DNA of 64,000 bases from Terriglobia bacterium (GTDB lineage Bacteria; Acidobacteriota; Terriglobia; 20CM-2-55-15): positions 384,001 to 448,000 of the forward strand of contig CAXWPJ010000010.1 of the NCBI GenBank assembly GCA_963664115.2, in the 5' to 3' direction. The notes beneath the pieces were generated by a model. That model searched no databases, was not told the DNA's origin, and saw only the letters and a list, made by a program, of their open reading frames with translations. The position numbers and the translations under genes were made by a program. This document shows positions 19,511 to 55,500 of the stretch, one piece after another; position 1 is the stretch's first letter, and each line of letters opens with the position of its first letter.

Positions 19511-19565
19511 ATTCGTTTCTCAGGACTTGAGAATTTGATAGCGCCTAACTCACTCCTCTAGTATC
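19511..19565 (+). promoter_or_regulatory. Inverted array half-site followed by the conserved sigma70-like promoter
   Basis: TTTCTCAGGACTTGAGAAT (19516-19534) is the exact reverse complement of 22434-22452. It is followed by TAGCGC-17 bp-TATCGT. Confidence 0.7.
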
Positions 19566-19609
19566 GTTTACTCAACTTTTCACAGTTCGTTTCGACGCAC
19601 ACTAAAACG

Positions 19610-19757
19610 ATGGAATCAGGCACCAAACTTGGCCACTCCGAGATCTCAACTCTCTATAGGTAAGGGTGGAATGGGTGAAGTCTGGCGTGCACGGGATACG
19701 AAACTGGGCCGTGAAGTTGCTATAAAGACTTTGCCTGAAGAGTTTGCGAAGGATGAT
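19610..19757 (+). pseudogene. Ser/Thr protein kinase, N-terminal remnant
   Basis: [15 protein letters not shown] / [33 protein letters not shown], with one frameshift. Gly-rich loop and VAIK lysine are present, then the homology stops. Confidence 0.85.
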
Positions 19758-19798
19758 CCTGTCGCCCCACCGGCTTCTCGGACACCCAAATAACGAAC

Positions 19799-21724
19799 AT
19801 GAACTTCCAATATCATCCCTTTTCTCTCTCACTGCTCCGAAGCCTAGGCCCAATCGAAATCGTACATGTAGATCGGGTGTTAGAGGAGCAACTCGGCCTG
19901 ACGAGCGACGAGATTGCAGCTCAGCCTCTCATAGACTGGATTCATCCTGAAGACAGGGCCGTTATCAAGGAAGCCCTGGATTCCGGCGCTGGCTACGCGT
20001 GGGCCCGGCATCGGACGAAACATCACGATTGGGTACCTTTTGATTGGCAGGTAGAGACCGCGGATGGTGGGGTTTTTGTGCTCGGGCGACTGGCATCGGA
20101 AAGCCCGATGAGCCCCGCGTCTTTCGCCCCTAGCAAGTCGAATACGCAGGCTGAGGCGCTGGAGGCCATGGCGCTCGTCGTGGAGGCAAAGAACCCGGAA
20201 ATGCGATGCTCGATCCTGCTCGTCGATTCTGCGACCCGTCGCGTCACAGTCGGCGCCGGTCCGAGTCTTCCGGCCGAGTACAATGAGGCGGTTGAGGGAT
20301 TGCAAATCGGACCCGCCGTCGGTTCCTGCGGGACCGCAGCGTTTTGGAATGTGCCTGTCATTGTCGATAACATTGCAGAGGACCCGCTGTGGCGTAACCT
20401 GCGTGGGACGGCCTCCATCGCCGGTGTCTGCGCGTGCTGGTCGCACCCGATCACGGCGACGGACGGTACTGTCCTCGGTGCCCTGGCGCTGTATGCCGAT
20501 GAACCAAAATTTCCTGACGAGAGCCAGATGGATGGACTTGAGATCGCGGCTCGCATGGTTGGCATCGCGCTCGAACGTGACCGCCTGCAGGAGCAGCTGA
20601 GGCGATCCTCGAAGTTGGAAGCAATTGGCCGACTGGCCGGAGGGATCGCGCACGACTTTAACAACTATCTGACGGCAATCGTGGGCAATCTTGACTTGGC
20701 GATGCTGGGGCTTGCGCCCGACGACGAGCGAAGACCCCTGATCCTGGCGGCCCAGAATGCGTCGCTCAGGGCGCGTGACGTCACGCAACAATTGCTCACC
20801 TTTGCCTCGGGTGGTGCTCCCGTGACCTCGGCTCAATCACCCATCGAGCTGGCCAGGGAGACCGTCGATTTCTCGTTGGCGGGCTCCAACGTGCGCTATG
20901 AGATGCGTTTCGGGTCCGAAATCAAGAATGTCGAAGTCGATAGAGGACAGGCGAGCCAGGTGATCCAGAACGTGGTCCTCAACGCCGTTCAGGCGATGCC
21001 GGAGGGTGGCGACATTGTCGTTAGCGCGGAAAACGTCCCCGCCGAATCGTTGCCTCACTCGGAGTCATCCGGTTCGGGCGAGTTTGTCCGATTGTCGATC
21101 GCTGACCAAGGTCTGGGCATACCGGAGCACCATCTGACTCGCATCTTTGATCCGTTCTTCTCGACGAAAGACCAGGGACGGGGGCTGGGTCTGGCGACGA
21201 CCTATTCGATCATGAAGCGGCACGGGGGCCAACTGACCGTGGATTCCACGATGGGCAAGGGAACGACCGTCCAACTGTATTTCCCGGTGGCGCAGCGAGA
21301 AGCCCAGCCCCTAGACCCGGACGTTGAGCCTCTTCTCTGCCCCGTCGGCAGGGTGCTGGTGATGGACGACGAGGAGTCTGTTCGGGACCTGCTCAAGAGG
21401 ATGCTCGTGATGCATGGCGGCGAGGTCACGCTCGCTTCAGACGGGAGCGAGGCGATCCGAATGTTTGAGCAGGCCCGGGGAGAGGAGAAGCCCTTTGATC
21501 TGGTGATCCTCGACCTGACGATTCCCGGTGGCATGGGAGGCGTGGTCGCCCTGAGCCACCTCCGAAAACTCGATCCTGAGGTCCGCGCCGTCGCCACGAG
21601 CGGCTACGCGGATAGCCCGATTCTGTCGGAACACGCGGCGCACGGATTCGCCTGCAGCTTGAAGAAGCCCTACTTGCTGGAGGATCTGAAAACACTGCTA
21701 TCCTCCGTGTCGGGGGATGTTTAG
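19799..21724 (+). CDS. Hybrid sensor histidine kinase (PAS-GAF-HisKA-HATPase-REC)
   Basis: WIHPEDR, GSCGTAAF (GAF), GGIAHDFNN, FDPFFSTK, GRGLGLA, VLVMDDE, DLVILDLTIPGG. Confidence 0.95.
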   Translation: MNFQYHPFSLSLLRSLGPIEIVHVDRVLEEQLGLTSDEIAAQPLIDWIHPEDRAVIKEALDSGAGYAWARHRTKHHDWVPFDWQVETADGGVFVLGRLASESPMSPASFAPSKSNTQAEALEAMALVVEAKNPEMRCSILLVDSATRRVTVGAGPSLPAEYNEAVEGLQIGPAVGSCGTAAFWNVPVIVDNIAEDPLWRNLRGTASIAGVCACWSHPITATDGTVLGALALYADEPKFPDESQMDGLEIAARMVGIALERDRLQEQLRRSSKLEAIGRLAGGIAHDFNNYLTAIVGNLDLAMLGLAPDDERRPLILAAQNASLRARDVTQQLLTFASGGAPVTSAQSPIELARETVDFSLAGSNVRYEMRFGSEIKNVEVDRGQASQVIQNVVLNAVQAMPEGGDIVVSAENVPAESLPHSESSGSGEFVRLSIADQGLGIPEHHLTRIFDPFFSTKDQGRGLGLATTYSIMKRHGGQLTVDSTMGKGTTVQLYFPVAQREAQPLDPDVEPLLCPVGRVLVMDDEESVRDLLKRMLVMHGGEVTLASDGSEAIRMFEQARGEEKPFDLVILDLTIPGGMGGVVALSHLRKLDPEVRAVATSGYADSPILSEHAAHGFACSLKKPYLLEDLKTLLSSVSGDV

Positions 21725-22278: not shown

Positions 22279-22398
22279 GACGGTCGCTTTCTCATGATCT
22301 CCGCAGCGAACCAACCTGAATTCGGTCTCAATCGTCCTCAAATCAACATCGTCCTCAACTGGTTTGAAGAACTGAAGGAACGGTTGCCGGTGCCGTAA
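22279..22398 (+). pseudogene. Ser/Thr kinase-PD40 protein, C-terminal remnant
   Basis: DGRFLMISAANQPEFGLNRPQINIVLNWFEELKERLPVP*, with no start. Confidence 0.8.
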
Positions 22399-22433: not shown

Positions 22434-22475
22434 ATTCTCAAGTCCTGAGAAATCATCTTCTCGGACGTTGAGAAT
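22434..22475 (+). repeat. Array site, copy a
   Basis: ATTCTCA AGTCCTGAGAA ATCATC TTCTCGGACGT TGAGAAT. Confidence 0.9.
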
Positions 22476-22543: not shown

Positions 22544-23390
22544 TTGTGCCACGAGCATAGAAGGCCGAATGGCCTTCGAGTGCGCAACTGCTCAACTGAT
22601 GAGGGAGGGCCCCTCGGAATCGGCTTGCAGGAGTTGGTTTCAAACCACCTTTGGCGGCTGTGGTCAAAAGCCATGGTCGTGAGCGCGTAAGGAAAAGGCC
22701 CGGCAGTGATCGGGTCAGGTGTCAGGCAAGAAGAGGACCGCAAGGGAACCACTGCTGAAGTGTCGAAAGCTTAGAGACGATGGCCAAAACCGCGGAGTTA
22801 TAGTTGCTGCGGGATGAGATCCGACGATACCTGTTTACGGGCGGAGTGGCCTCCGGCATGAGAGGTGGCCTGAGCTTGCCAAGAGGCGGTTGAGCGGAAC
22901 GTGGGAACCTGAACTTCGATGCTAACGGAGAAGCCACAAGTGGAAGCACCACGAGGGCGAGAGTACGGATGCGGGGTTCAGGGGCGGACTGCCTTGTAGT
23001 AGTGATGAACCTCTTGTAATGAGAGGGGAGCGAAGGGGGCAGGCCATTCGCGTCATGGTCCATGAACTCAGGAGGAACCGACTGTTGTGGCGGGGAGCAA
23101 CAGTAAGCCGTGTGAGAGAGGGGACGTCCGCGTTGCGCCTTGAAAGGGAAGTCTAGTCAGCCTGCCGTGGCAAATTCGCGTCATGGTCACTGCCGTAGAC
23201 AGGGAGGGAGTTGATAGCCCCGAAATCGATCGTGGTTGAAGTAGCCGACCTTGTCAACTGGTAACAGGAGGAACCGACTGTTGTGGCGGGGAGCAACAGC
23301 TCTCAGTGAATGGCAAGAGCCGTGTGAGTTGAGAGGCTCACGCACGGTTCTGTGAGAGGCTCGGGGTGAAATTCCCCGGGCCTACTCGGC
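22544..23390 (+). mobile_element. ORF-less or internally deleted group II intron
   Basis: 5' TTGTG followed by a CCACG/CGTGG basal stem. Domain V GAGCCGTGTGAGTTGAGAGGCTCACGCACGGTTC (23317-23350); domain VI ends CCTACTCGGC. Boundaries are inferred. Confidence 0.75.
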
Positions 23391-23671
23391 CGTCAAGTAG
23401 AAGGTCGACTGATGTGCCAGAGGGCGGCTTGTGCGGCGTTGACGATCAATTCCCTAAACACTAGGCGACAAGGGTGGATCTATCTCACGAATCTCACTCA
23501 GCTCCCTTTATCAGAGATGGCGGAACCGGCGACCCGAATCGAGGAGGACCTGACTCCAGGGCTCTTTGACAGACGGAATAAACGACGGCGTCGGAGAATG
23601 GCCGTGCTGGCAATGCCAGCAGAGGGCTGACGTCAGGTGGCGGATCAGCGGAATAAGCAGGGTCTGGTGTT

Positions 23672-24154
23672 ATGGAACCGACAAAGACAAAGCTCGTTGA
23701 ATTCGGTCGCTTTGCTCAGCGGGATGCGGGCAAGCACGGGAGAAAACGTCCAGAAACGATCTACTTTCTGGGCATGACCCTGTACTGCTCGCAGAATCGC
23801 AAAGGCAATTTCCGGGTGGGATTGCGCACTGAGAAGTCTCGACTTCAACGCAGTCTGGCCCATCTACGCGATCTGATGAGACGAATGCGTCACTTGCCGG
23901 TCCGGGAGCAGGTTCAGAATCTGAATCGGGTCTTGCGTGGTCACTACGCCTACTACGGCATCGCCGGAAACTTCCGGGCCCTCCAGCACGTTGCTCGGGT
24001 CGTGGAGCGTTACTGGCGCAAGATGCTGAGCAGCCGGAGTCGCGCTGGTTACGTCCGGTGGGAGGTATTCAACCGGATTAAGACGCGCTTTCCGTTGCAG
24101 CGGCCCAAGCTGGCGCTTCCGTATCGGGAGTTCCAGTCTCTTGCTGTGTTGTGA
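23672..24154 (+). pseudogene. Group II intron reverse transcriptase/maturase, C-terminal fragment
   Basis: KTKLVEFGRFA, PETIYFLGMT, LNRVLRGHYAYYG (domain X); the YADD region is missing. Confidence 0.88.
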
Positions 24155-24167
24155 ATCCGTTTCTGAA

Positions 24168-24241
24168 GAGCGTAGTGCGGGAAATCCGCACGCTACGTTC
24201 TGTGGGAGCCGGAGGCGGGTGACCGCCTCTGGCGACCCGGT
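24168..24241 (+). ncRNA. Domains V-VI of a second group II intron
   Basis: GAGCGTAGTGCGGGAAATCCGCACGCTACGTTCTGTGGGAGCCGG...GGCGACCCGGT directly after the RT stop codon. Confidence 0.85.
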
Positions 24242-26545: not shown

Positions 26546-26611
26546 CGACCGCAGATCCGTGTCGTTCTGAACTGGTTTGAAGAACTGAAAGACCGGGTGC
26601 CGGTTCCATAG
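26546..26611 (+). pseudogene. Ser/Thr kinase C-terminal remnant
   Basis: RPQIRVVLNWFEELKDRVPVP*. Confidence 0.8.
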
Positions 26612-26626: not shown

Positions 26627-26666
26627 ATTCTCAAGTCCTGTAAATCATCTTCTCGGACATTGAGAA
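26627..26666 (+). repeat. Array site, copy b (1 nt shorter)
   Basis: ATTCTCAAGTCCTGTAA ATCATC TTCTCGGACAT TGAGAA. Confidence 0.9.
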
Positions 26667-27458: not shown

Positions 27459-27732
27459 GTGCTTCAGAGAGGTTACGGAGAAGAGGCTGGTGGAGCCAAA
27501 GTGATTCTCAACTTCCGCGAAGGTCGTTTGAACTAAGCCGCTGGCGCGGCGGACACGTTGCGTGCGTGGTCGAGGACCTTGCCTGACCGAGAGAGGGTTT
27601 CGCGTTGTTACCGTTTGGAAAGTTCCCGGAGGTAACGGCTCGTGACGGTTACGTGGACGAGTTCGAGCTGCCACTGACGAAAGCTCTGGGCGCTCGACTT
27701 CTTGGCGAATGTTACCGCGACCTAAATGGGGG

Positions 27733-31438: not shown

Positions 31439-31478
31439 GTTCAAGTCCTGAGAAATCATCTTGTCGGACATTGAGAAT
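31439..31478 (+). repeat. Array site, copy c
   Basis: GTTCA AGTCCTGAGAA ATCATC TTGTCGGACAT TGAGAAT. Confidence 0.9.
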
Positions 31479-32065: not shown

Positions 32066-32225
32066 GGGTGACCTCCGTCTTGCTTCAAGACTCCCTGCAT
32101 CCTAAGGAACTAAGCTGATTGTAAAGACAGCTCCCGCCACGCGGTCAATTCTGAGATCAAGCTGCCCATAAGCCCGCGTTTCTGGTTCCGGCCCCAGGTC
32201 CAGGTGAAGGGCCACCTGCAGGTTA

Positions 32226-33192: not shown

Positions 33193-33459
33193 GTGGAGTA
33201 TACACCCGTTTCGGGCACTGGAATTCTCGTAGCCGTACCGATTCAAACCAGTCCGACGTTTGCAACGAGTAGACTGCGGGAATTGTTTCCACTTGCTCGG
33301 TTACGAGCTATGAATAATGTCGCTAACTACGACATCGAACCTGAAGGTGAGAGATTCATCATGACGACAGAGGACGAGGCAGGGGAGGCATCCTCGAAAC
33401 AAATCAACATCGTCCTGAACTGGTTTGAGGAACTGAAAGAACGGGTGCCGGTGCCATAG
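33193..33459 (+). pseudogene. Ser/Thr kinase-PD40 protein, longer C-terminal remnant
   Basis: LVAVPI...ELF...NYDIEPEGERFIM...QINIVLNWFEELKERVPVP*. Confidence 0.82.
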
Positions 33460-33588
33460 TTTTTGAGTTCAAGTCCTGATAAATCGCAGTATGAAAGGAC
33501 GCCCCTAGACTGGGGGTTGTTGAGAGAAGACTCACTCAACAACCTGATCAACGTATACAGCGTTGATCCCAGAAAAGGAGCGTTCGAG

Positions 33589-34653
33589 ATGAAACAAGAC
33601 AAGTATATGGGTATGGATGTGCACCAGGCAACGACGGTGGTTGCGGTGAGAGACGGGAGCGGCAAACTGGTGTTTGAAACGATCGTGGAAACCGAGGCGG
33701 GGAGTATCACACGGCTGCTGGAGGGATTGAGTGGGCCGATGCACGTGGGGTTGGAGGAGACCACGCAAGCGGGCTGGTTATCGGAAGTGATCCGGCCGTG
33801 GGTGAGCGAGGTGGTGGTGTGCGATCCGCGACAGAACAAGTGGATGCAAGAAGGGTCGAAGGGGGATAAGCCGGATGCGCGGAAGCTGGCCGAGCTGTTG
33901 CGGGTGGGACTGTTGCGCTCGGTGTATCACGGCCATGAAGCGACGCGAGAATTGAAGCAACTGGTGCAGGCCTATGACACGTTCCAGTTGGACACGCAAC
34001 GGGTGATGTCGCGGATCAAAGCGATATACCGGGGACGGGGGATCCCGACACCGAAGGACGGAGTCTATCGGCCGAGTCAGCGCGAACAGTGGTTGGAGAA
34101 GCTGACCGAGCCGGGGATGAGGCAGCGCGCCCGATGGTTGTATGCGGAACTGGACCAGGTCCAGTTGCTGCGGAAACAATCCAGAAAAGCGGTGCGAGTG
34201 GAGGGCCGGCACCATGAGGCGGTGAAACTGCTCGAGACCATTCCACAACTGGGACCGGTTCGGGCGGCACAGATCGTCGCCATCGTGGACACGCCGTACC
34301 GATTCCGCACGACACCGCAGTTCTGGAGCTACAGTGGCCTGGGTGTGGTGACCCACATGAGCGCGGAGTATGAGATGCAGAGTGGACGTGTGGTGCGACG
34401 GAGGAAACCGGTGGCCACACGCGGATTGAATGCGAACTGCAACCGGCGATTGAAGTCGGTGTTCTTCTCAGCCGCGGCATCGGGAAAACAAAGCGAGCCG
34501 TATCGGATTTATCTGGAGAGTCTCCAGATGCGTGGGATGCGGGAGGAAATGGCGCGGGTCACTCTGGCCCGTAAGATCGCCGCACTGGTGCTGACGCTTT
34601 GGAAGAAAGGAGAATCGTTCGATCCAAAGAAACTGAGCTGGATGACAACATAA
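33589..34653 (+). CDS. IS110-family DEDD recombinase/transposase
   Basis: MGMDVH, LEET, KGDKPDARKLA, TIPQLGPVRA, FWSYSGL, LARKIA. Confidence 0.93.
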   Translation: MKQDKYMGMDVHQATTVVAVRDGSGKLVFETIVETEAGSITRLLEGLSGPMHVGLEETTQAGWLSEVIRPWVSEVVVCDPRQNKWMQEGSKGDKPDARKLAELLRVGLLRSVYHGHEATRELKQLVQAYDTFQLDTQRVMSRIKAIYRGRGIPTPKDGVYRPSQREQWLEKLTEPGMRQRARWLYAELDQVQLLRKQSRKAVRVEGRHHEAVKLLETIPQLGPVRAAQIVAIVDTPYRFRTTPQFWSYSGLGVVTHMSAEYEMQSGRVVRRRKPVATRGLNANCNRRLKSVFFSAAASGKQSEPYRIYLESLQMRGMREEMARVTLARKIAALVLTLWKKGESFDPKKLSWMTT

Positions 34654-34714
34654 GCCGTTTCGATCCGTGACCGGTAGAGCCGTACTGAGTCGTTAGACGG
34701 AGTCGGAACAACTG

Positions 34715-34845
34715 AGGATCGAGGGTGAGGATCTGCACAAGATGTGGTCCCTGGATACGTCCAGAGGACACTTTTAAATCTCTATCCCCCCTCGCACGAC
34801 CTGAAACAGCGATAGCCTTCGAGGCTCAGATAGATCCATGGTCGG
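34715..34845 (+). ncRNA. Putative bridge/seek RNA of IS110 #1
   Basis: Two stem-enclosed internal loops: ACAAGATG / TAAATC match the target, and GCGAT / ATAGATC match the element's end junction. Confidence 0.7.
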
Positions 34846-35368
34846 CACATGCCGTCCCATATGCTGTTCAGTTTCTGAATCGACCGTCTTAAAGATGTAC
34901 GATTTCGCTCCGGATTGCCGGAACCAGGGCTTCACATAACGGTAGAGGGGCTGGCTGTCACGACAAAAGTGTCCGTCTGGCCGGCCATCGGGGAGCTGTT
35001 TCTCTTGACATCCCCTTTCATAGATCATCTTGTCGGAAGTTGAGAATTGGATTGTGTGGTTTTCGTCGATCCCGAGAGTAGGAAATAGAGACAGTTCTTT
35101 TGTTTTCCTATTGAATAAGACTGGATTCCAGGACTGTGACGGCTCTGAGCCGTTGGTCCAATCCGCCGACCGTCGTCCGGCAGAGCATCAGCGCCGCATA
35201 CCCCAGACACATGCCCCCGCCAATGGTCCATTCCCGGCGAGTTCTGGACAGGTTCAAAACGCTTTCGTTCACGACGTGGAGCCGAAACGTTTGTCAGTCA
35301 AACTTGTCAGAAACTTTCTCGGTGATTGCATTCTGCTTGGACTCGATATTCGAGTGCGCTATTTTTCG

Positions 35369-37579
35369 CTAGCCGCTCAACCATCCCGGCAGAATAGCCT
35401 TGATCTGGTTCCAATAGATCGCGCCGAGAATTACGACAGCGAGCAGGGCGAATAGGGAAACCGCACCGACACGAGTCCAACGAGTTCCTCCGTGGCCGGT
35501 CTGACGTAGGAAGAGGGTGACCAGATCGCGGCGTTCCTTGCGTGCCCCTTCTGGCAAGTGGGGCGTGTGGCTGAAGAGGTATCCGAGCCGCCGCGTCATG
35601 TACATGCGGAAGTTCACCGCCCAGCCGCAGGCCTCCAACAGAGCGCTCATGTCCCGCTTGCGCAGCTTGTTCCAACCCGCAAGGGCACTGAACAGGGCCA
35701 CCACGAGAACCAGGCTCATCAAGGTAATGCCGACCCTCAGAAGGCTGATTTCCGAAAGTGTGCTGATCAGGTAGGCCAGCGATGAACCGATGGCGGCGAA
35801 GGCAATGCCGCCGCCAAGCAGCAGGTCGCGCATGCCAATGCCAGATTGGGGTGGGGCTTGGGCCGATGGCGCCTCGGCAGGCTGCTGGAGCGATTCGCCT
35901 GCTTCCATCTTCGTCGTGACCTCGGTCGTGGCCTTTTCCAGGGATCCCGCCTGGGTGCCTACAAAGGCTTCAACCTTCTCGGATATTAGTTTCTTGGCTT
36001 TCACAAAAGGCGACTTGACCGCTTCGCCCAGGCTGATGGGGTTCTCGATCAAATCCACCACTCGTGCGTCCCACTCATTGCCATCGAGATCATAGAAGAT
36101 ACCGCGCTTGCCAATTTCGATGGCCCCCTGGCCGCCGGAGGTGAGAGCGGCGGCAATCTCGAAACTGGGCCCCAGCCCCTCGGGTACAGTGATCTCGGCG
36201 TACACCAGGTACATCTCGCTGGCCTGGGCGATCTTCTTGTGCTCGGCGCGATTTCGGACCTTTGTCGTGAATGTAAGTTCACGGCCGTCAATGATCAGGT
36301 CGCCCAATTCAAACAGGGCGCGGCGATCCGGGTCGTACATCGCGGAGAAACTTACAAAGTTGTTGGCCAGTTCCAGGAGCCAGCGTTGGTACAGGATGAG
36401 CGTCTCCAGGTCCGTCACCTGCTTCACTTCATCCTTCACCGCTAGATCCTCCAGCAGGAGCTCGAAGAGCCTCTTCTCGGCCGGACCATCTAAATATTCC
36501 CTCAGCGTTGTCTCGCTGATCCGTCCGACGCCATCCGACGGCTTTCCCGCCTGCCACCCTCGGTAGGGCTCGAAAATGGCCTGGACCTGCCCCCAGCCGA
36601 TCCGCGTGAGAGATTGGCGGGAGTTTGGCTGGGCACGGGCAAGGACCCGATTTTGTAATTCGTCCATCTGTTCCCGGTAGTACGGATTGATGGGGCCCCG
36701 CAGATTCAACACACCTTCAGCGTTTGGCGTTTGCAGGGGCGCTCGCGCGAGCTGACTTCTCAGAGCTTCCAGGTCGGAGCCGTCCAGGTTCCAGAGATCG
36801 TGTTCATTCAGGCAGATGCGTTCGGCGGTGCGGGCATCGAGCTGGACCATGTCGCATTGCAAGAAGAACTGTCGGATCTTGGCATCGAACTCCGACGTGA
36901 GCTTCACCGCGGCCGCCGTGTCGCCGCCCCAGGGCAGAATCCCTGCCGCGCCGTCATCTTCGGCGAGCGTCTTCCAGTCCAGGTACGTCCTCGCACGATC
37001 CAGGAATTGGCGCAGGTGATCTTCGTTTATTCCGTCTGCGCCGCTGATGTCCTTGGTACTGCCGACCTGTTTGAGTACGTCCGCTGCCAACTGTGCCGCC
37101 CCGGGATCCGAAACGTGCTCGGGGGGGAGCACCCCGTCGCCGTTGGGAGGCAATTTCCCATATGTATTCTGAAATACGCGGACCTGTTCGAGGCTGATCT
37201 GGTCCATGTTCTTTGCCTTCAACTGGCCCAGGATATGGATCGCGGCTTCCTGGAGCCCCCGGCCCTCCTCGTGGCTGGTATCCAGGTCCGCGAGGCGCAG
37301 GACATCGGAGGACTCAGCCATTCGGTCTCTCGTTGCCATCATATGGAATGTCCAGGTCACTCCCGCCCGCAAATGCTCGGCACGGATTGTCCCGCTGCCA
37401 TCCTGATTCAAGTACTTGAGGAACGCGGGATCGCATTGCAGGCTTTCGATCTGCACACTGGTGGCAGCCCAGCGAGCGGGGTGGAGCTGGTGAATGAAGG
37501 CCAAATCCTCCGCACTCTCGATGCGCAGTTGGTGGATGCCGCCGTAATTTCGAAAGACAATGGGCTTCACAACCCACAT
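35369..37579 (-). CDS. Large hypothetical membrane protein
   Basis: About 736 aa, with an EF-hand-like NQDGSGTI, a helical body and C-terminal TM helices. It is the only gene between sites d and e. Start uncertain. Confidence 0.75.
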   Translation of the reverse strand: MWVVKPIVFRNYGGIHQLRIESAEDLAFIHQLHPARWAATSVQIESLQCDPAFLKYLNQDGSGTIRAEHLRAGVTWTFHMMATRDRMAESSDVLRLADLDTSHEEGRGLQEAAIHILGQLKAKNMDQISLEQVRVFQNTYGKLPPNGDGVLPPEHVSDPGAAQLAADVLKQVGSTKDISGADGINEDHLRQFLDRARTYLDWKTLAEDDGAAGILPWGGDTAAAVKLTSEFDAKIRQFFLQCDMVQLDARTAERICLNEHDLWNLDGSDLEALRSQLARAPLQTPNAEGVLNLRGPINPYYREQMDELQNRVLARAQPNSRQSLTRIGWGQVQAIFEPYRGWQAGKPSDGVGRISETTLREYLDGPAEKRLFELLLEDLAVKDEVKQVTDLETLILYQRWLLELANNFVSFSAMYDPDRRALFELGDLIIDGRELTFTTKVRNRAEHKKIAQASEMYLVYAEITVPEGLGPSFEIAAALTSGGQGAIEIGKRGIFYDLDGNEWDARVVDLIENPISLGEAVKSPFVKAKKLISEKVEAFVGTQAGSLEKATTEVTTKMEAGESLQQPAEAPSAQAPPQSGIGMRDLLLGGGIAFAAIGSSLAYLISTLSEISLLRVGITLMSLVLVVALFSALAGWNKLRKRDMSALLEACGWAVNFRMYMTRRLGYLFSHTPHLPEGARKERRDLVTLFLRQTGHGGTRWTRVGAVSLFALLAVVILGAIYWNQIKAILPGWLSG

Positions 37580-38119
37580 TCTACTCTGGAGTGTCCCGGC
37601 CGCGTGGGTGCCACACGTATTTTCGCCGCGATCCGGTTTCCGAAGGTGCGGGTGGCGATTCGTTAGTTTCTTGTCGAAATCCGTTAGATTTCCTTTCTTG
37701 CGATCATGTTCTGAAAATCCGCTCAGGGGCGCGAGCGGCAGAACTGACGTCAATAGTTCGGCTCGATTGGCGTCGCTTTTCTGCTGCGGAGGCCTTGTTC
37801 TGGGCCGTCGTGGACATCATCAACTTAAGCTGTTCGATGGCGTTTTCGGCTCCCTCTGTCGCCTCCGGCGACAGTTTTGCCGGCATCTGGCCATCCATTG
37901 CACTGCAAACCCTGCTGCCGAGTAGAGGAAGCCACTATCGGTCCGTAGGTATCCCCTTGGCCGTATCCGCCGTTTCCGGCATCGTGCCCGTGCCCTGATC
38001 TTCAAGGTCAAGTCCTGTATCTGGACTCCTCTGTCAAGTAGGCGCAGCTCTCCCGTCAGCTTTCTTCGGCAAAATGCATTCAGCAGGACTGACTAGAAGT
38101 TACGAGGTGAGTAGCTAGT

Positions 38120-39966
38120 CCCTGAACAAGCGTGATTGACGAGGAAATGATAGTGCAATAAGAGCGGAAGTACCCGAAATGCCCCCTCTCCGTGCGAAAA
38201 AAACCTTGAACAGATTCTTCGGAAAAGGAGGCATTTCAGATGAACGATTATACGCGCAAGAACATGAGGAACCGCAAGCGGCGAATCGAACGTCGGCTTG
38301 GGGACCGGCATTGGACGGATCAGGTAGAGCCGATGTTTTCGGCGAGCAACATTCAGTACGAGATGGGAGAGCGGACGCGGGGCACATCGGTTGGTGGTAT
38401 CGGGACGATGCAACTGGTGGCGCGGCGGACCGGGCTGATCGAAGCCATCGACAAGGGCGTGCATGTGTTGAAGCGGCACCTGCCGTATCACGAGTCGGAT
38501 CACGTGCTGAACATCGCCTACAACGCCTTGAGCGGAGGAACGTGCCTGGAAGACATCGAACTGCGGCGCAACGATGCGGTGTATCTGGATGCGCTGGGAG
38601 CGCAACGGATTCCGGATCCGACGACGGCGGGAGACTTCTGCCGGAGATTCGAGGCCGACGACGTGGAGTGTCTGATGGAGGCAACCAATCAAGTCCGGCT
38701 CGGAGTCTGGCGACAGCAACCGGCGGCGTTTTTCGAAGAAGCGGTGTTGGACGCGGACGGGACACTGGCCGAAACCACGGGGGAATGCAAGCAAGGGATG
38801 GACGTGGCCTACGACGGGACGTGGGGATATCACCCGCTGATGATCTCGCTGGCCAACACCGCCGAACCGCTGTATCTGGTCAATCGTAGCGGCAACCGGC
38901 CGTCGCATGAAGGAGCCGCGGTCCGGTTCGACCAAGCCATCGCATTGTGCCGGCATGCGGGGTTTCGCCAGATCCTGCTGCGCGGGGACACGGACTTCAG
39001 CCAGACCCGGCATCTGGACGGATGGGACGACCAGCAGGTGGGTTTCATATTCGGGATTGACGCGATGGCGAACCTGAAGGCCCGGGCCGATGAACTGGAG
39101 CCGCGCCAGTGGAAGCGCCTGGAACGGCCCGCGAAATACGACGTGGCGACCGAACCGCGCCAACGTCCCGACAACGTGAAGGAAGAGATCGTTCGGCAGC
39201 GCGGTTTCGACAATATCCGCTTGCAGGGTGAGGATGTGGCCGAGTTTCGGTATCGACCCGGAGCCTGCGATCGGGACTACCGTGTCGTCGTGGTGCGGAA
39301 GAATCTGTCGGTGGCCAAAGGAGAGCAGGTGTTGTTTGACGACATCCGGTACTTCTTCTACATTACCAACCGTTCGGATCCGGCCGACCAGATTGTGATG
39401 CGTGCCAATCAACGGTGCAATCAGGAGAATCTCATTGAGCAGTTGAAGAACGGCGTTCAGGCGTTGCGGATGCCGGTCGGAGATCAGACCAGCAACTGGG
39501 CCTACATGGTGATCGCGTCACTGGCCTGGACACTGAAAGCGTGGTTTGCATTGCTGCTTCCCGAAACCGGACGTTGGGGCCAAAAATATCAGGCTGAGAA
39601 GCAAACCGTGCTGCGCATGGAGTTCAAAACCTTCTTGAACGCTTTCATGCTTGTGCCGTGCCAACTCGTGCGCACCGGGCGGCGCATTCTGTTCCGGATC
39701 CTGGCCTGGAACCGGTGGTTGCCGGTCTTGTTCCGCGGGGTGGATGTGTTGCGTCAGCCTCTGCGATGTTGACCCGATCATGACTCTGAGCCCGGGCGAT
39801 CGAGGTCCCGGTTTCTGTCAACCGTCCAACACCAGCGAGGCTGAACTGAAACAGATTCAACAGAAACTCGATACCTGGAACAGGCCATCCGGGAACGGGA
39901 TTCTATGCCTCGAATTCTATCGGCGCGAACTGGGCCTCGGCGGACTGGTTATGCGCTTGTTTTGGG
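38120..39966 (+). mobile_element. IS1380-family element, copy 1
   Basis: IRs CCCTGAACAAGCG / CGCTTGTTTTGGG; 6-bp duplication GCTAGT; 1847 bp. Confidence 0.92.
38240..39772 (+). CDS. IS1380-family transposase
   Basis: LDADGT, GYHPL, LRGDTDF, NQRCNQENLIEQLK. Confidence 0.92.
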   Translation: MNDYTRKNMRNRKRRIERRLGDRHWTDQVEPMFSASNIQYEMGERTRGTSVGGIGTMQLVARRTGLIEAIDKGVHVLKRHLPYHESDHVLNIAYNALSGGTCLEDIELRRNDAVYLDALGAQRIPDPTTAGDFCRRFEADDVECLMEATNQVRLGVWRQQPAAFFEEAVLDADGTLAETTGECKQGMDVAYDGTWGYHPLMISLANTAEPLYLVNRSGNRPSHEGAAVRFDQAIALCRHAGFRQILLRGDTDFSQTRHLDGWDDQQVGFIFGIDAMANLKARADELEPRQWKRLERPAKYDVATEPRQRPDNVKEEIVRQRGFDNIRLQGEDVAEFRYRPGACDRDYRVVVVRKNLSVAKGEQVLFDDIRYFFYITNRSDPADQIVMRANQRCNQENLIEQLKNGVQALRMPVGDQTSNWAYMVIASLAWTLKAWFALLLPETGRWGQKYQAEKQTVLRMEFKTFLNAFMLVPCQLVRTGRRILFRILAWNRWLPVLFRGVDVLRQPLRC

Positions 39967-39974
39967 GCTAGTCG

Positions 39975-40110
39975 ACTGCACCCGTATCTTCGGCCTCAAA
40001 AGTGGAACTGTATTGTTCCAGGCCATGATGGAAATTTGCGCGCGGGGAGCCAACCGATAAAATAACGGCCTCTAAGGGCCAAAGGACTTGTCGGCGTTGC
40101 CCCGCGCCGG
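39975..40110 (-). ncRNA. Putative bridge/seek RNA of IS110 #2
   Basis: On the minus strand: CAAGTCCT-hairpin-TTTAT (target) and CCATCA-hairpin-AGATA (donor junction). Confidence 0.68.
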
Positions 40111-40178
40111 TCTGACCGGTACGCCATCATCTCGAACCTCATCGCAGCTCGCTGAAAAGATATTCCGACTGTTCCGGG

Positions 40179-41213
40179 TCAGGCCGCCTGATACCGGGCC
40201 TGATGGTCACAGTCACGGTTCCAAACCGCCCACACGCGACGCGCCAACTTGTTGGCCAGTGCAACGATTGCCTTGTTGTGTCCGCGGAACTCGTGTTTCT
40301 GGAGACCCCATTGCTGGAGAGGTGTCGGTGTGGCGCCCTCTCGATGGGCACTCCACAACAGGGAACGGCCCCCATGAACCAACAGCATCCGGAGGTAACG
40401 ATCGCCTTGCTTACTGATCCGGCCCATGCGTCGCTGGTTGCCACTGGAATGTTCCCGGGGTGTGAGTCCCAGATAACTGGCAAAATGGCGGGACGTTCGG
40501 AATCGTTTGATGTTTCCAACAAACCCCACCATTGCCGTTGCCGTTAACAGGCCGATGCCGGGAATCGACGTCAGACGCGCGACCTCAGGCATCTGCCGAG
40601 CCAGCGTCTTCAACTCTTGTTCCACCGATCGCATGCGAGATTCCAATTCACGGATCTCGCCACACACCTGGTGAAACATCTCCCGAACGACACTGGGGAT
40701 GACGACATCTGCATCTTCGATCAGCTCCATTACCCCCGGCACCAGATGATCCGCTCCGGTCGGGATCACGTAGCCAAACTCCCGTAACAACCCCCGCACC
40801 GTATTGATCCGTGCGGTTCGGGTTCGCATCCACGCCGAACGGATTCGATGCAATGAGGTCAGTTGCTGTTGGGCCAGGGTTTTGACCGGCACTGGATGAA
40901 TATCGCTGTCACGATAGGCTTCCAACAATCCTTTCACATCCGTACGGTCGGTCTTGTTGCGCCTGACGTAGGGCGTCACATACTGCGGCGAGATCAGAAC
41001 GACCGTGTGTCCCAGTTCCCGGATCTTCCGACCCCAGTAATGGGCGGATCCGCAGGCTTCCATCACCACGGTCGCCAGCTCCTGGTTCGCAAAGAACCCC
41101 AGAAACTTTGCCCGACTTAAACGATAGGTTTTCTCTACATGCCCGGGGCGATCTGAAACACCAATTTGAAAAACATTCTTTGCCAGATCCACTGCTATCG
41201 TTCTATTCTTCAT
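40179..41213 (-). CDS. IS110-family DEDD recombinase/transposase
   Basis: IAVDLAK, MEACG, KTDRTD, SIPGIG, GLTPREHSSG, ISKQGD, ALANKLAR. Confidence 0.95.
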   Translation of the reverse strand: MKNRTIAVDLAKNVFQIGVSDRPGHVEKTYRLSRAKFLGFFANQELATVVMEACGSAHYWGRKIRELGHTVVLISPQYVTPYVRRNKTDRTDVKGLLEAYRDSDIHPVPVKTLAQQQLTSLHRIRSAWMRTRTARINTVRGLLREFGYVIPTGADHLVPGVMELIEDADVVIPSVVREMFHQVCGEIRELESRMRSVEQELKTLARQMPEVARLTSIPGIGLLTATAMVGFVGNIKRFRTSRHFASYLGLTPREHSSGNQRRMGRISKQGDRYLRMLLVHGGRSLLWSAHREGATPTPLQQWGLQKHEFRGHNKAIVALANKLARRVWAVWNRDCDHQARYQAA

Positions 41214-41373
41214 CTCGGACTCCTTTTTGTTCACACGTACACGTGTTTCGCCCGCTTTATTGCGAGGCTCAAAATGACTTTGGCACTTCGATGCCGACTC
41301 AGTCATCAAAGAGGAGTCCATACCATCAATAAATCATCTTCTCGGACGTTGAGAAACCCGCTGATTCAAATCA

Positions 41374-41451: not shown

Positions 41452-41568
41452 ATGCCCCTCACGTCAGGCACAAAACTCGGTCCGTTTGAGATCCGTGATG
41501 CGATAGGTGCGGGTGGCATGGGCGAAGTCTATCGGGCCACCGATACGCGGCTGGGCCGCACTGTTTAG
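41452..41568 (+). pseudogene. Ser/Thr protein kinase, N-terminal remnant
   Basis: MPLTSGTKLGPFEIRDAIGAGGMGEVYRATDTRLGRTV*. Confidence 0.87.
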
Positions 41569-45901: not shown

Positions 45902-46434
45902 TCACACCCGCACAGCGACGCCGTGATACGCGCCGCTGTGCGTTTCCATTGCTGAAACGTCGACGTTGCCACGGAGTTATTCAAAAGCGGTAACCCCAGG
46001 ACGACCTCGGGACCGGGGCGGCGCTGCTCCAGGCGTTGCTGAAGGGAATCGGGAGTAGTCTTCGCCCAGGCTATCGAGTAAGTTCGGACCATGGTCTTCT
46101 GGAGCTGGCATAGCGAAGTGGATTTCGTCGAGGAAGGCCGTTTTTCGGGGGCTTTCTAGTTACCGCGAAGGCGGTAACACATCCATGTGACCTTTCATTG
46201 ACCCCAAGTCCCCTCCCTCGTATTATTCAGCCAGATTTTCTAGGTTCTCTTAGCGACACGCAAAAAGCATGGTATCCAGCGCACAGCCAGGCAATTCAAA
46301 GGCAGGATGGCAGAAGTGCTGAAAGCCAAGGACGAAAAACTGGTCGGCGTGATTGAGGGAATCGTTTTCCTAGACATCGACGTTCAAAAATCCTAGCTAT
46401 AGCCCCACAAGCCATAAAACCAGAGGGTAATGCC

Positions 46435-47196: not shown

Positions 47197-47323
47197 CGTT
47201 GAACCCTCCAATGCGAGCAGGATCACATGCCTGCAGGCGGACGTCGAAATTTCGTTGCCGCCCTATCCACCCGTTTTGCGGACAGTCTCCAGTTATCTAT
47301 ACTCTGATTCGACAGACACTTAA

Positions 47324-47380
47324 ATCAACGTGGTCTTGATTCGGTTTGAAGAACTGAAGGAACGGGTGCCGACCCCCTGA
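47324..47380 (+). pseudogene. Ser/Thr kinase C-terminal remnant
   Basis: INVVLIRFEELKERVPTP*. Confidence 0.78.
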
Positions 47381-47387: not shown

Positions 47388-47426
47388 GGTCAAGTCCTGA
47401 CAAATCATCTTCTCGGACGTTGAGAA
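47388..47426 (+). repeat. Array site, copy f
   Basis: GGTCA AGTCCTGACAA ATCATC TTCTCGGACGT TGAGAA. Confidence 0.9.
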
Positions 47427-47538: not shown

Positions 47539-47926
47539 ATGGGACGCGGCATCGGCTTCATTTCGTTGATTCTTGCGGCGGCAGTCGGGGCATATCTTTA
47601 CTCAGAGCAGGCCAGTAACGTCACGCCGGGTGGCGGTGGACCGACAGATGCTATTGATGTGACCAGCGTGCGAATGGATCTCATAGGAATCGCCCAAGCC
47701 GAACGCACGTACTTTGCTACGAATGGCAGGTACGCTTCGCTGGATGAACTGCGCGCCAACGGTGACACGCAAATCACCCGCGACAGACGTCCCAACTATA
47801 CGTACTCCGTCGAGACCAGCAACCAGCAACGCAGGCTTCAGGATTATCGCTGACTACTCCGGCCCTGATCCTAATGCGACCAAACGCATCAGCGTTGACG
47901 AAACGCTCACCGTGCGTACTGAGTAG
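47539..47926 (+). pseudogene. Small pilin-like membrane protein, frameshifted by a 7-bp duplication near 47820
   Basis: N-terminal TM helix, IAQAERTYFATNGRYASLDEL. Removing one CCAGCAA copy gives ...ETSNAGFRIIADYSG...TVRTE*. Confidence 0.7.
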
Positions 47927-47954: not shown

Positions 47955-47996
47955 ATTCTCAAGTCCTGAGAAATCATCTTGTCGGACATTGAAAAT
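47955..47996 (+). repeat. Array site, copy g
   Basis: ATTCTCA AGTCCTGAGAA ATCATC TTGTCGGACAT TGAAAAT. Confidence 0.9.
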
Positions 47997-48036
47997 TGGC
48001 AGATTACTGAGGTTTACTTTGTGCAATTTTCTACGA

Positions 48037-48130
48037 TGTCGTTTCGCAGGAATTGAGAATTATTTAGCACCTAACGCCCTCCCTTAGTATTTTTTATAGA
48101 GTTTTTCACAGTTCAATTTGGGACACACTA
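48037..48130 (+). promoter_or_regulatory. Inverted array half-site plus conserved promoter block, with no downstream ORF
   Basis: TTCGCAGGAATTGAGAAT, then TAGCAC-17 bp-TATTTT and TTTTCACAGTTC, as at 19.5 kb. Confidence 0.65.
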
Positions 48131-51859: not shown

Positions 51860-52024
51860 CGTGATCCTCCGTTCCGGATACTGACCCAGACCGCCTAGCG
51901 GCCCGGGACTGTTCTCGAAACAACTCCAAGGGATGCCGTCACAGGTGAAAACACAACTCACCTGTGACGAAAACGTGTGGGCGCGAGCCTCGTCGGCTGG
52001 TTCAGGACGTCTCTAGGGAGTACC

Positions 52025-52417: not shown

Positions 52418-52576
52418 CGTAAACACCTCCTGCTGCGGTCAAGTCCCTAAGTGAATAAGCCAAGATTATTACGTGGCCAATATTAAGTGTCAAGCATCAT
52501 GAGTACGTGATGGGCCGAACAGCACGATGGTGTCTGACGTAACCTGGGCGAGCGACCGCGGGGTTCGCCACCTCGA

Positions 52577-55009
52577 TCAGAACTGAAATCTCATTCCGAC
52601 CTCGATTTGCCGCGGTGAGGTCGCGTTGAAAGACCTTCCGAAGAAGGGAGACCTCAGGACACCGCTGGGTGTTCCCAAGTGCGTCATGTTGAAGGCGTTG
52701 CTGAGATTTGCAAAGACATTCATTCTGGGTCCGGCGCCTGCAGCGCCCGAGGCGTCGCCTCTGAATTCAATGGCTTTCGAGACGTTGAAGCTGACATCGA
52801 AATAATTCGGTCCGAGTTCGCTGTTCTTGACGACCCCTTCAGGCCGGTCGTTACTTACGCCATCGCCGTTGTCATCCCGACCCGTGGTAATCGTATATCG
52901 CCTGCCGCTACGTGCCCCGACGACCGTGGTCAGGTACACGTCGAGCGGCAACCGCGAATTGACGCTCACATTGAACGTATGCGAGGGGTTGTTGGTCCGT
53001 CCCCACTCCTTCCAAACATTGCGGCTATCGACCGGCAAGCTCAGGCCCGTGCTCGGCTGATCGTGGAGTCCGTGGTAATACATATAGTCCGCGGTGACAT
53101 TGAAGACGCTGATACGCTGCCGCATGGTGGCCTTGAAATGCTGATGGGTCGACAGGCCGCCTTCGAGTTGGACAATCTGGCCTTCGTCGGGAAAGGGCCG
53201 GAGGCCCGTTTCAGGAAACGGCGCGTTCAAGTCCCGGACACGCTGGGCTTTGATTCCACGGCTCCTGTCGTAGGCTACCGTGACGAAAATATTATGGGGC
53301 AGGCTCTGCTCCAGTTGCAGTTGTACCACTGCGAAATACGAGTTTCTCAAATCAGGCGCAATCTGGTTGCGGGACGGGGGCCTGATGCTGCCTGATGAGA
53401 ACGGGTCGGGCCAACCCGGGTTGTCGATCTGGATCTCGTACCGCCGTTGTCCATCCAGCTTGCTGTACGTCTTCAAAGTGCGAAAATTCCACGGGTTCGT
53501 GAAGATAGCCCCACCGCCGCGGATAACCGTCGAGTTGCCGATCGCGTATGCAAAACCGATGCGTGGATCCACGTTATTCCGGTCGGAGATGCTGGTTTGC
53601 ACGAAATAACGTATGCCCAGCATCAGCGTGAAGGTCGGCGTGAGCTTGAAATCGTTCTGGGAGAAAAAAACAAGGTGCGTGTCGCTGATGTTAAACGAGG
53701 GTTCGCAGCATTTGATCCGGTACTTCAGCGGTGTTCCGGCCCGGTAGCTTTCCAGATCCGAAAACGTGAATTCGCCAAAGAAATTGTCTTCCGAAACCGA
53801 ATGTTCGCTCCGGTGCCAACCTCGAAATCCGCTTCGCATCGTCAGGTTTTCACCGGCATAGTAAATCAGGTTGTTCAGTTCGTAGTCGTTTCCGTTGATC
53901 AGGTCCCGGTTCTGTGAGCCCCCTCCGGTGAAGGCGTCCTTGACAACAATCCCCAGGGCATTGCTTAGGGGAGTGGTTTCGCTGCGATCTTTCCGCCAGA
54001 TGAAGTGGAGATCGTGCACGGTGCGCTCGGAAAGAATGGAGACTGCGCGAAGATCGACGACATGGTCTTGGGTCTCAGTGTGGGAAGCGCGTTCGGGCAG
54101 GCTGAAATTGCCCACGTTATCGTTCTCGATGTCATGGGTGGCGTACTGGAAACGCATGTGCAGTGAATGTGCGTCCGCAATCTGCAGCACGCCCCGGGTG
54201 TCGTAGGACCGGAACAACACGGGCCGGGTGACGCCGAGCGAAAAAGGCCCGTCCGGTGTTTCGGCCTTGACCGTGCCGACATTTTCCCGTCTGTTGTCCC
54301 TGAGGGCGAAGTTCAATGAGAGGCGATCTTGAATGACGGGACCGCTGATGTCGCCGTTGAGGGTCCGTTCATAGTAGGGCGGTTTATTGACCGCGAAGGG
54401 ATTTCGGGCGTTCAGGGCCTCGTCCTGGAAGGTTGCCGCGAAATTGCCGTGAAAGGCGCCGACACCGCCGCGCTCGATTACTTCGGTTCTCGCGCCGCCT
54501 TCATGCAGGCCCCCGGATCCGTTAGCGGTGGCGGTTTCGACATTAAACGGGTTATTCGTCACGCGGATCTGTTGGATGCGTCCGCTCCCTGCACTCCCAT
54601 CCCCGGAATCCCCCACATAAAATGCCACGTCCTGTTCACTCTGGTAGTTCTCCCAGGCGCGTCTCTGCGCCGGGGTCATGTAAGCAGGAAGCTTGCTATT
54701 CAACGCGTCATACATAAACCGGATGCCGGCCAGGGCCTGATCCTGCTGCTCGCCCTGCGGCGGTCCCTGGCTGAAATCCCAGGTTGCGCCAAACAGGTTT
54801 TCCGCAGCCTGACGCTCCACTTCGATGAGCAGTGCCAACTGCCTTTCCTGATCTGATGTGAGAGGCACCTGCGCATCCGCCAATGCCTCGGTCACCTGGT
54901 CTTTCAGCTCGTCGATGGGATTGCGGGCGGTCAGTTGCCCAAAGGCAGCGGTGGCGAACAAGATACAAATCAAGGCAGGACGCATCACGTTCATGCTAGC
55001 ACGCCCCAT
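52577..55009 (-). CDS. Oar-type TonB-dependent receptor-like outer-membrane protein
   Basis: IQQIRVTNNPF, DEALNARNPF, DPRIGFAY, C-terminal MRFQF; paralog of 48235-50880. Confidence 0.85.
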   Translation of the reverse strand: MGRASMNVMRPALICILFATAAFGQLTARNPIDELKDQVTEALADAQVPLTSDQERQLALLIEVERQAAENLFGATWDFSQGPPQGEQQDQALAGIRFMYDALNSKLPAYMTPAQRRAWENYQSEQDVAFYVGDSGDGSAGSGRIQQIRVTNNPFNVETATANGSGGLHEGGARTEVIERGGVGAFHGNFAATFQDEALNARNPFAVNKPPYYERTLNGDISGPVIQDRLSLNFALRDNRRENVGTVKAETPDGPFSLGVTRPVLFRSYDTRGVLQIADAHSLHMRFQYATHDIENDNVGNFSLPERASHTETQDHVVDLRAVSILSERTVHDLHFIWRKDRSETTPLSNALGIVVKDAFTGGGSQNRDLINGNDYELNNLIYYAGENLTMRSGFRGWHRSEHSVSEDNFFGEFTFSDLESYRAGTPLKYRIKCCEPSFNISDTHLVFFSQNDFKLTPTFTLMLGIRYFVQTSISDRNNVDPRIGFAYAIGNSTVIRGGGAIFTNPWNFRTLKTYSKLDGQRRYEIQIDNPGWPDPFSSGSIRPPSRNQIAPDLRNSYFAVVQLQLEQSLPHNIFVTVAYDRSRGIKAQRVRDLNAPFPETGLRPFPDEGQIVQLEGGLSTHQHFKATMRQRISVFNVTADYMYYHGLHDQPSTGLSLPVDSRNVWKEWGRTNNPSHTFNVSVNSRLPLDVYLTTVVGARSGRRYTITTGRDDNGDGVSNDRPEGVVKNSELGPNYFDVSFNVSKAIEFRGDASGAAGAGPRMNVFANLSNAFNMTHLGTPSGVLRSPFFGRSFNATSPRQIEVGMRFQF

Positions 55010-55390
55010 TACGCGGGTCTTGAGAGAAAAGATAGACGCGTCTGGGACTATTTGGATTTCTAAAGTATTGGATTAAAACATATTGCGATCGAATGCAGAT
55101 TCAATCAGAATTCGATCCTGATTCCACCTTTTCAAACCAGTTTAGCAGCCCGTGAACCCTGGGTCTCAAGCAGATACTCCAGGATTGCCTGACGGATTTC
55201 GGGCATCGGTTTCTCCATGCCCTGTTCCTCGACCATTTCACCGATCACCCGGTTCCACTGGGACAGCGTCAATTGAGGCGTCGCATCGTGATCGACGTGT
55301 ACCTTGGAATGGGCTGGACAAATCCGGGTAAATATTACTAGGGGCAGGGGTTATAAGCACGGAAGATGTTGCATCCTGCTGTCGATATCA

Positions 55391-55500
55391 TAGGATTTAT
55401 CAGGATCTGAGAGTTTGATTGCACCTAACTCCCTCCCTGAGTATTCTTTAGCGAGTTGTTGCGTTGGTTTCGCAACACACACAACGATGCAATTCGGCTC
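55391..55500 (+). promoter_or_regulatory. Inverted array half-site plus conserved promoter block
   Basis: TTATCAGGATCTGAGA, then TTGCAC-17 bp-TATTCT and ACACAACGATG (MQFGSQ, weakly kinase-start-like). Confidence 0.65.

Follow-up and report, generated by a model that had tools for sequence, protein, structure and literature searches.

A lox-shaped repeat in two spacer classes

The stretch analysed here, hereafter the window, comprises 64,000 nucleotides (contig C10, positions 384001-448000) of the 4.89-Mb, 12-contig genome of a Terriglobia bacterium (G000), and it carries an array of short intergenic repeats interspersed with remnants of Ser/Thr-kinase genes, cargo genes and insertion sequence (IS) elements. 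The repeat is a 34-bp lox-shaped dyad of 13-8-13 architecture. The original prediction counted seven direct, intergenic copies with the centre ATCATC, and all seven are present outside real genes: four are intact 34-mers, one is a base short and two are split. Exact matches to the core pattern number four in the window and none in 100 shuffles. The splits at 33467/35024 and 38006/41329 are also real, their cause being IS110 insertions, one of which holds a nested IS1380. Four of the seven copies are preceded by a recognisable 3' remnant of a Ser/Thr-kinase gene and a fifth by a few kinase codons. The window additionally holds four inverted sites with a different spacer and one site of a second arm family (Table 1). 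The supposed invariance of ATCATC extends to all seven copies of the window but not to the genome, which contains two spacer classes: R, with ATCATC, and L, with ACGACM (ACGACA or ACGACC), inverted and lying beside a promoter.

Across 147 R copies, positions 1-11, 13-22, 25-28 and 31-34 are conserved at 90-99%, and positions 12, 23, 24, 29 and 30 are variable. The conserved arms span 13-14 bp, with the outer TCAA/TTGA conserved at 95-98%, rather than the 11 bp of the 11-6-11 scheme first proposed. The expected tyrosine-recombinase-type dyad with a fixed 6-bp centre is borne out: matches selected by their arms alone have a centre of 6 bp in 128 cases, of 5 or 7 bp in three and of 4 or 8 bp in none, and the 6-bp centre reads ATCATC in 106 of the 128. 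The spacer thus does not vary as freely as the arms, its length and sequence being held while arm positions 12, 23 and 30 vary. At eight mirrored pairs of arm positions we observe no excess of pairing (for the pair 12/23, 0.39 observed and 0.40 expected). This absence of covariation indicates that there is no selection for a hairpin and that the site behaves as a double-stranded binding site; folding of the site as DNA is weak (-3 to -7.5 kcal/mol in six copies).

Read as 13-8-13, the repeat is similar to sites of Cre type. In the 81-kb plasmid p0908 (NC_010113), which is named as the source of VCre (PMC3082901), the top match of the arm matrix is VloxP, at 32.1 bits against 17.8 for the best of 50 shuffles, and VloxP is the only 13-8-13 palindrome of that plasmid with at most one mismatch. 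R site and VloxP have the same base at 22 of 26 arm positions and at 3 of 8 spacer positions. Next to their spacer, active Cre-type sites have the motif G(T)-A-T(G)-A (PMC10250229), which R sites have as well. The host dif is a separate, canonical 11-6-11 site at C2:108.1 kb, at the cumulative GC-skew maximum; the R arms match its XerC-side arm at 8 of 11 bases and its XerD-side arm at 5 of 11, so that the repeat is not dif-like in the strict sense.

The idea of one local array gives way to a genome-wide distribution. A matrix scan returned 190 matches above 18 bits (two shuffles of contig C9 never exceeded 4), and after addition of the second class and removal of mirror duplicates and three doubtful rows the curated set comprises 218 sites, 171 R and 47 L, occupying 48 of 104 50-kb bins. 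The sites cluster, as anticipated, with a median nearest-neighbour spacing of 1.5 kb; random placement gives 7.9 kb, and none of 1000 simulations fell below 5.1 kb. An even scatter through the genome is not seen. They are also strongly polarised: with L read as inverted relative to R, 157 of the 164 neighbours less than 10 kb apart agree (97 R-R, 30 L-R, 27 R-L and 3 L-L). R and L face each other repeatedly, separated by 17-24 bp in 16 cases and by 108 bp in five, and the linkers are homologous. Cargo open reading frames (ORFs) run in the same direction as the sites in 45 of 68 intervals and in the opposite direction in 23. By inspection, no target duplication is visible at 29 L...R pairs. Transposon ends or miniature inverted-repeat transposable elements are rejected on this ground, on the lack of target duplication between 144 adjacent R pairs and on the unequal numbers of R and L; the central 14 bp are not a duplicated target either, adjacent sites being no more alike than random ones (144 pairs).

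The arrays are built on remnants of a Ser/Thr-kinase/beta-propeller gene, with cargo between the remnants, as at 19.5-22.5 kb of the window. Half of the R sites (86 of 171) come after the 3' end of such a gene, and a conserved promoter-like block, located ahead of kinase 5' ends, accompanies 30 of the 47 L sites. The genome has 27 kinase-domain matches, only five frames of 870-906 codons are left, and tblastn recovers 129 patches homologous to the kinase gene. In relatives with intact kinases the equivalent positions are occupied by a second arm family (family II, to the family I described so far), CACWT..CG..CG..GTG, whose 75 distinct sites have two main spacers, GTCGYN after the stop and ACCGCM before the promoter; genome G007 has 71 kinase-domain matches. 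Family II sites are present in the genome studied here too, including one in the window, and often abut family I sites. One site of genome G002 is a hybrid joined at the spacer, its left half belonging to family I and its right half to family II.

Among 41 genomes the R pattern occurs in six (116, 72, 33, 8, 1 and 1 copies; none in controls), and the public records that share the site are metagenome-assembled genomes of Terriglobia. In the host's family, 8 of 35 genomes, from three genera, contain the family II R pattern, each in 5-13 copies (controls 0-3). A blastn search of plasmids with the site gave two chance-level matches.

Relocated modules and a candidate recombinase

Four genomes yielded 228 inter-site intervals, and 32 non-redundant pair matches cover at least 90% of such an interval elsewhere. 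In seven of these matches, which represent four distinct modules, both ends are sites and neither flank is related; a further 14 combine unrelated flanks with one recognised site, three have none, and eight have one flank or both in common. A 1252-bp module is present on C2 and C6 at 99.8% identity, a 678-bp module is found in three places across two genomes, and the arrays of G001 and G002 map piecewise onto scattered places in this genome at 90-98%. An array of about 8.7 kb with kinase genes is 99.5-99.9% identical between G004 and G007, which belong to different genera (L096 vs L063; L101 vs L087). These shared loci could reflect recent transfer or misbinning, the latter because the G004 contig is only 16 kb long. 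Large near-identical blocks rearranged at R sites are also seen between C6:19-48 kb and C11:1-10 kb plus 55-81 kb.

Synteny breaks fall inside the site, as predicted: in 29 pairs that share one near-identical flank, pairs that are not independent of each other, identity always stops within it. The stricter claim, that the breakpoints lie exactly at ATCATC, agrees with most of the recent pairs and not with the older ones. Of eight non-redundant pairs with at least 99% flank identity, six fit a central crossover and two do not; three of the six are informative and place the crossover between positions 12 and 23, before 23 and after 9, respectively. At positions 35, 36 and 37 the base goes with the downstream flank in 17, 17 and 16 of 17 pairs. 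Since the arm variants over all pairs follow their flank no better than baseline, the data fall short of proving a clean central crossover, the signal of which may have been blurred by recurrent events, gene conversion or IS activity.

Elements of the IS110, IS30 and IS91 types insert into the sites. By inspection, the right ends of IS110-a abut the spacer in 7 of 7 cases, about 12 of 13 left ends of IS110-b lie inside sites, and so do 11 of 14 right ends of IS30.

Which enzyme could act on these sites? Tyrosine-recombinase matches in the genome number 27, namely XerC, XerD, an integron integrase, eight IS91-linked copies, phage-type integrases and a simple tyrosine recombinase that we call YR-A. 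A recombinase encoded outside the window had been postulated, and YR-A is the candidate: its gene (C5:52189-53139), with catalytic motifs intact, is flanked by the only facing L pair of the genome, at distances of 91 and 77 bp from the open frame. YR-A stands at the head of two divergent arrays and is the only one of the 27 matches with a site less than 100 bp away on both sides. The placement recurs in relatives. About 140 bp separate the G007 homologue from a family II L site that has a divergent kinase promoter and an array, and G017 has two broken copies, each abutting a family II site.

In metagenomes, the best 80 of 307 loci with YR-A homologues provided 62 distinct upstream regions. The motif ATCGCC[TA], related to the R spacers AGTCGCCT and AATCATCT, occurs within 200 bp upstream in 28 of these 62; of 1348 control windows, 11% contain it. 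Its distance is nearly fixed, and several copies lie inside clear 13-8-13 dyads. Spacer types follow the clades of a quick tree of the homologues, and the arm matrices score above 10 bits in 5 of 20 upstream windows of the two nearest clades, which hold the enzymes of G000 and G007, and in none of the 48 windows of the rest.

Other enzymes were considered and rejected. For a recombinase encoded inside the arrays, clustering of 7627 near-site ORFs gave kinases, IS proteins and cargo and, as recombinases, only YR-A and the IS91-linked proteins. Serine resolvases number 3 to 60 per genome, their counts do not track those of the sites, and none is tied to arrays. A tblastn search of G000 with VCre found nothing below E 2.5, YR-A itself matches VCre with only E 7e-4 (among 27 proteins), and the VCre-like proteins of G002 and G003 have no family I or II site nearby. 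The G002 gene (L158 ~8972-9862) is unrelated to R/L sites; that of G003 (L045 1438-2421) is frameshifted and preceded by its own, different 13-8-13 palindrome (2456-2495). Against the integron integrase model TIGR02249, YR-A scores 61 bits, the cut-off being 265. The main text of PMC8138268 does not mention Acidobacteria.

Proposed cassette exchange and its rivals

We consider it moderately likely that the 34-bp sites serve the single-subunit tyrosine recombinase YR-A to excise, insert and exchange cassettes. YR-A would bind both arms in double-stranded DNA and exchange strands in the central 6 bp. Recombination between direct R repeats would release cassettes and add them in tandem at R sites elsewhere, and a whole L...R unit could be swapped by two crossovers; because their spacers differ, L and R would rarely cross-react. 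The founding cassette might have been a promoter-bearing Ser/Thr-kinase/beta-propeller gene, the middle of which was mostly replaced by other cargo. In genomes that lost YR-A, the arrays would stay as they are or be remodelled through homologous recombination and by IS elements, and L, lying beside the -35 box, may have a regulatory role as well. More tentative is the broader proposition of a previously undescribed natural Cre-lox-like cassette system, in which one simple tyrosine recombinase and two non-interchangeable spacer classes would allow an acidobacterial lineage to amplify signalling-kinase genes, capture foreign cargo inside them and pass cassettes from array to array and from genus to genus. 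Each chromosome would then have hundreds of sites, and several IS families would specialise in them. We hold such a system to be possible rather than probable. A published description of the site or system was not found in the literature searched, the coverage of which excluded subscription journals and supplements such as the 500-pair table of PMC10250229, where relatives of YR-A could be listed.

Several observations weigh against a role of YR-A. It was not found in 7 of 11 site-rich genomes (G002, G003, G004 and G045 at E 1e-8; G013, G021 and G046 at E 1e-15), of which G002 has 72 R copies, and it is broken in G001. Its family is very large (7999 matches among 8000 candidates scored), most homologues have no family I or II site within 330 bp, and the G000 row has a long branch in the quick tree. 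By sequence YR-A is Xer-like, not Cre-like, with PDB matches to XerA, XerD and XerH. As regards the exchanges themselves, the two recent pairs at odds with a central crossover are the two ends of a single 1252-bp module. Position 12 agrees with the upstream flank in 3 of 12 pairs (baseline 36%), and position 23 with the downstream flank in 7 of 17 (baseline 52%). The duplicated blocks of C6 and C11 may be strain haplotypes in a metagenome assembly, or true duplications. No excised circle or empty-site junction appears in public contigs, which break at repeats; since their joints have short sides and reflect other copies, they are no evidence for or against circles.

The main rival supposes that the sites are relic attachment sites now spreading mainly by homologous recombination or gene conversion among about 200 near-identical copies, together with kinase and promoter remnants and aided by IS elements. 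Linkage to the adjacent flank is kept only at the outer few bases of the site, interior variants are common to neighbouring sites no more than to random pairs (144 pairs), and mosaic arrays also exist in genomes where YR-A was not found, all of which speaks for such spreading. Homologous recombination alone, however, leaves unexplained the conservation of the spacer beside variable arm positions 12, 23 and 30, the separation of two spacer classes and the repeated placement of YR-A beside sites, and we judge this explanation unlikely, if still worth serious attention. That the enzyme is instead the simple recombinase paired with an IS91-type transposase, recognising and recombining these sites, appears improbable. 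At recognisable element ends, to which the comparison across genomes is confined, such elements, by inspection, directly follow the spacer of a family I or II half-site in 8 of 8 cases in G000 and in 2 of 2 seen in each of G002, G013 and G046, but all three copies examined in G001 are outside sites, none is among the 12 recombinase matches of G003 with its 43 R matches, and the junctions have only about 3 bases in common, as expected of a transposase target. The partner recombinase might steer this targeting.

An operator of a transcription factor on kinase promoters, copied with tandem kinase genes, would fit the position of L directly upstream of a conserved -35/-10 pair and that of R, often ahead of the next promoter. 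We find it decidedly improbable, given that R persists where only a few kinase codons are left and where the cargo is oppositely oriented (23 of 68 intervals), that flank exchange breaks within the site, and that an operator needs no strict conservation of its centre. Recombination of pdif-like sites by host XerC and XerD would solve the problem of the missing enzyme, since both proteins are present in all close relatives examined, and one arm does resemble the XerC-side arm of the host dif (8 of 11). It is nonetheless very improbable: the other arm (5 of 11 to the XerD side) lacks TTATG, family II arms are unlike dif, and the 97 R-R direct neighbours outnumber the 57 alternating ones, whereas dif modules alternate (PMC13141974). 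Most improbable of all is a single-strand hairpin element of attC or repetitive extragenic palindromic (REP) type, processed by the integron integrase or an HUH transposase; the site does fold weakly (-3 to -7.5 kcal/mol) and the genome has an integron integrase, but the eight mirrored pairs do not covary, the length is fixed and the integrase is 196 kb from the nearest site.

Cassette exchange by YR-A would resemble several known systems in part. Acinetobacter dif modules are gene modules bounded by pdif sites, and their moves need identical or near-identical spacers (PMC13141974); pdif sites also attract specialised IS elements (PMC10132070). Like dif modules, the arrays described here consist of gene modules set between short tyrosine-recombinase sites whose centre is 6 bp long, and they too attract specialised IS elements. 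They differ in that the arms are not those of host XerC/XerD, each arm family has two spacer classes, about 220 chromosomal copies coexist with a dedicated recombinase candidate, and 97 R-R and 3 L-L direct neighbours accompany 57 alternating ones, dif modules having inverse, alternating sites. Exchange between matching spacers fits 6 of the 8 recent pairs and is not resolved by the older ones. With the Cre-type pairs VCre/VloxP and SCre/SloxP (PMC3082901) the sites have in common the 34-bp 13-8-13 dyad and G-A-N-A adjoining the spacer, as well as a position within about 1 kb of the recombinase gene (PMC10250229; 91 and 77 bp for YR-A). Those systems, unlike the present one, have one site beside the gene and not hundreds in arrays, and no Cre-family protein was found in this genome. 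Because YR-A is closer to XerA/XerD and a VCre-like protein is lacking, the likeness to VloxP may be convergence or deep kinship.

A sedentary chromosomal integron consists of intI, attI and attC. Polarised cassette arrays, and one recombinase gene heading them with a site and a divergent promoter, are features common to such integrons and the present arrays, which differ by having no attC core or inverse core, no hairpin covariation, a fixed site length, G, A or C before TT, cassettes that often have their own promoter, and cargo in both orientations. An intact, TIGR02249-positive integron integrase is encoded at C9:714.6 kb (L016 9591-10760). The arrays work like dif modules and are laid out like a chromosomal integron, and they fail defining tests of both; of the predicted integron-like or pdif-like capture array with a non-attC site, the tyrosine-recombinase-type site, the clustering, the synteny breaks within the site and a candidate recombinase outside the window stand, and membership of either class does not. 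REP sequences targeted by IS110 (PMC12288879) are likewise abundant intergenic palindromes; the strong polarity, the two spacer classes, the lack of hairpin covariation and the exchange of flanks at the site set the present repeats apart, and identity with REP was rejected.

If YR-A acts on the sites, it would provide a third route of cassette shuffling beside integrons and dif modules, one based on chromosome-wide, double-stranded lox-type sites. A very large recombinase family of Acidobacteriota, so far unannotated, would thereby acquire both a role and a target site, and the Ser/Thr-kinase expansions seen in the lineage would have a possible mechanism. New recombinase/site pairs, already equipped with orthogonal spacers, would become available. 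It would then have to be explained how lethal deletions are avoided in a genome bearing about 170 sites of one and the same spacer.

Further features of the window

Table 1. Sites, kinase remnants, cargo and insertion elements (window positions unless a contig is named)
Feature	Position	Strand	Remarks
L-class site	19511..19530	-	one arm and most of spacer; truncated by IS30 end at ~19508
Predicted sigma-70-like promoter	19535..19564	+	TTGATA, 18 bp, TAGTAT, just inside L site; from sequence; motif beside 30/47 L sites
Ser/Thr-kinase gene 5' remnant	19610..19757	+	frameshifted
Cargo: hybrid histidine kinase	19799..21724	+	GAF, HisKA, HATPase, receiver; between kinase 5' and 3' remnants
Kinase 3' remnant	22342..22398	+	ends ..VLNWFEELKERLPVP at stop
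R site	22438..22471	+	intact 13-8-13; 22/26 arm bases as in VloxP
Group II intron remnants	22601..24241	+	in interval after first R site
Kinase 3' remnant	26553..26611	+	
R site	26631..26663	+	left arm one base short
Half L site	27508..27527	-	against end of IS91-type element (element start 27528)
R site	31441..31474	+	intact
Kinase 3' remnant, longer	33300..33459	+	
R site split by IS110-a	33469..35043	+	left arm 33469-33482; IS ~33483-35023; spacer and right arm 35024-35043
Single-gene cargo	35369..37753	-	at most 794 amino acids; no Pfam/NCBIfam match; Atlas look-alikes unnamed
R site split by IS110-b	38008..41352	+	left arm 38008-38017; remainder 41330-41352
IS110-b	~38018-41329		transposase 40179-41321, minus strand; IS1380 (38240-39772) nested inside
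Kinase 5' remnant	41453..41566	+	straight after R site
Family II L-type site and promoter-like block	46151..46226	+	site 46151-46192, then TTGACC-17-TATTAT
Kinase 3' remnant	47322..47380	+	
R site	47390..47423	+	intact
Single-gene cargo	47539..47853	+	between two R sites; no Pfam match
R site	47959..47992	+	intact
L site, degenerate	48023..48056	-	faces last R site; then promoter block
L site, very degenerate	55377..55410	-	with promoter block; upstream of glyoxalase-family gene
IS91-linked elements	27528 onward; C1:92.9k, C1:107.7k, C2:196.4k, C3:2.9k, C12:35.3k, 158.2k, 487.0k, 569.3k		

The R site that is one base short has the sequence given by joining both IS110-b junctions, and it is possibly the scar of an IS excision. 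The family II site and its promoter-like block precede a solute-binding-protein gene (46435-47196). The small gene between the last two R sites may be pilin-like, a suggestion that is only a lead and comes from one Atlas cluster with ComP_DUS on 31% of its members. Seven bases near 47815 are missing in three other sequencing runs, and the short frame may therefore be a strain lesion or an assembly error.

The group II intron after the first R site is decayed, consisting of two domain V/VI pieces, a maturase fragment and a 269-bp direct repeat of 99% identity (23360/24243); its pieces were the only matches in an Rfam scan of the window. A different repeat, ..GTCGTATGGGTGTTATGTCAA.., with a good XerD-type arm, is found at 24524-24560 and in about a dozen other places, often fused to R sites or placed after kinase 5' remnants. 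A short ORF of about 35 codons at 27060-27165, with an acidic leader ending ..EERIAPG.. and then a Gly/Lys-rich tail, resembles a peptide precursor and is flanked by repeated AAGTGCTTTCGGAAGGTT-like motifs (repeat family D8). Genes of the DUF6152 family occur three times in the window (31637-33116, 51107-52426 and 56938-57375), two of them paired with a protein of about 290 amino acids that has no Pfam match.

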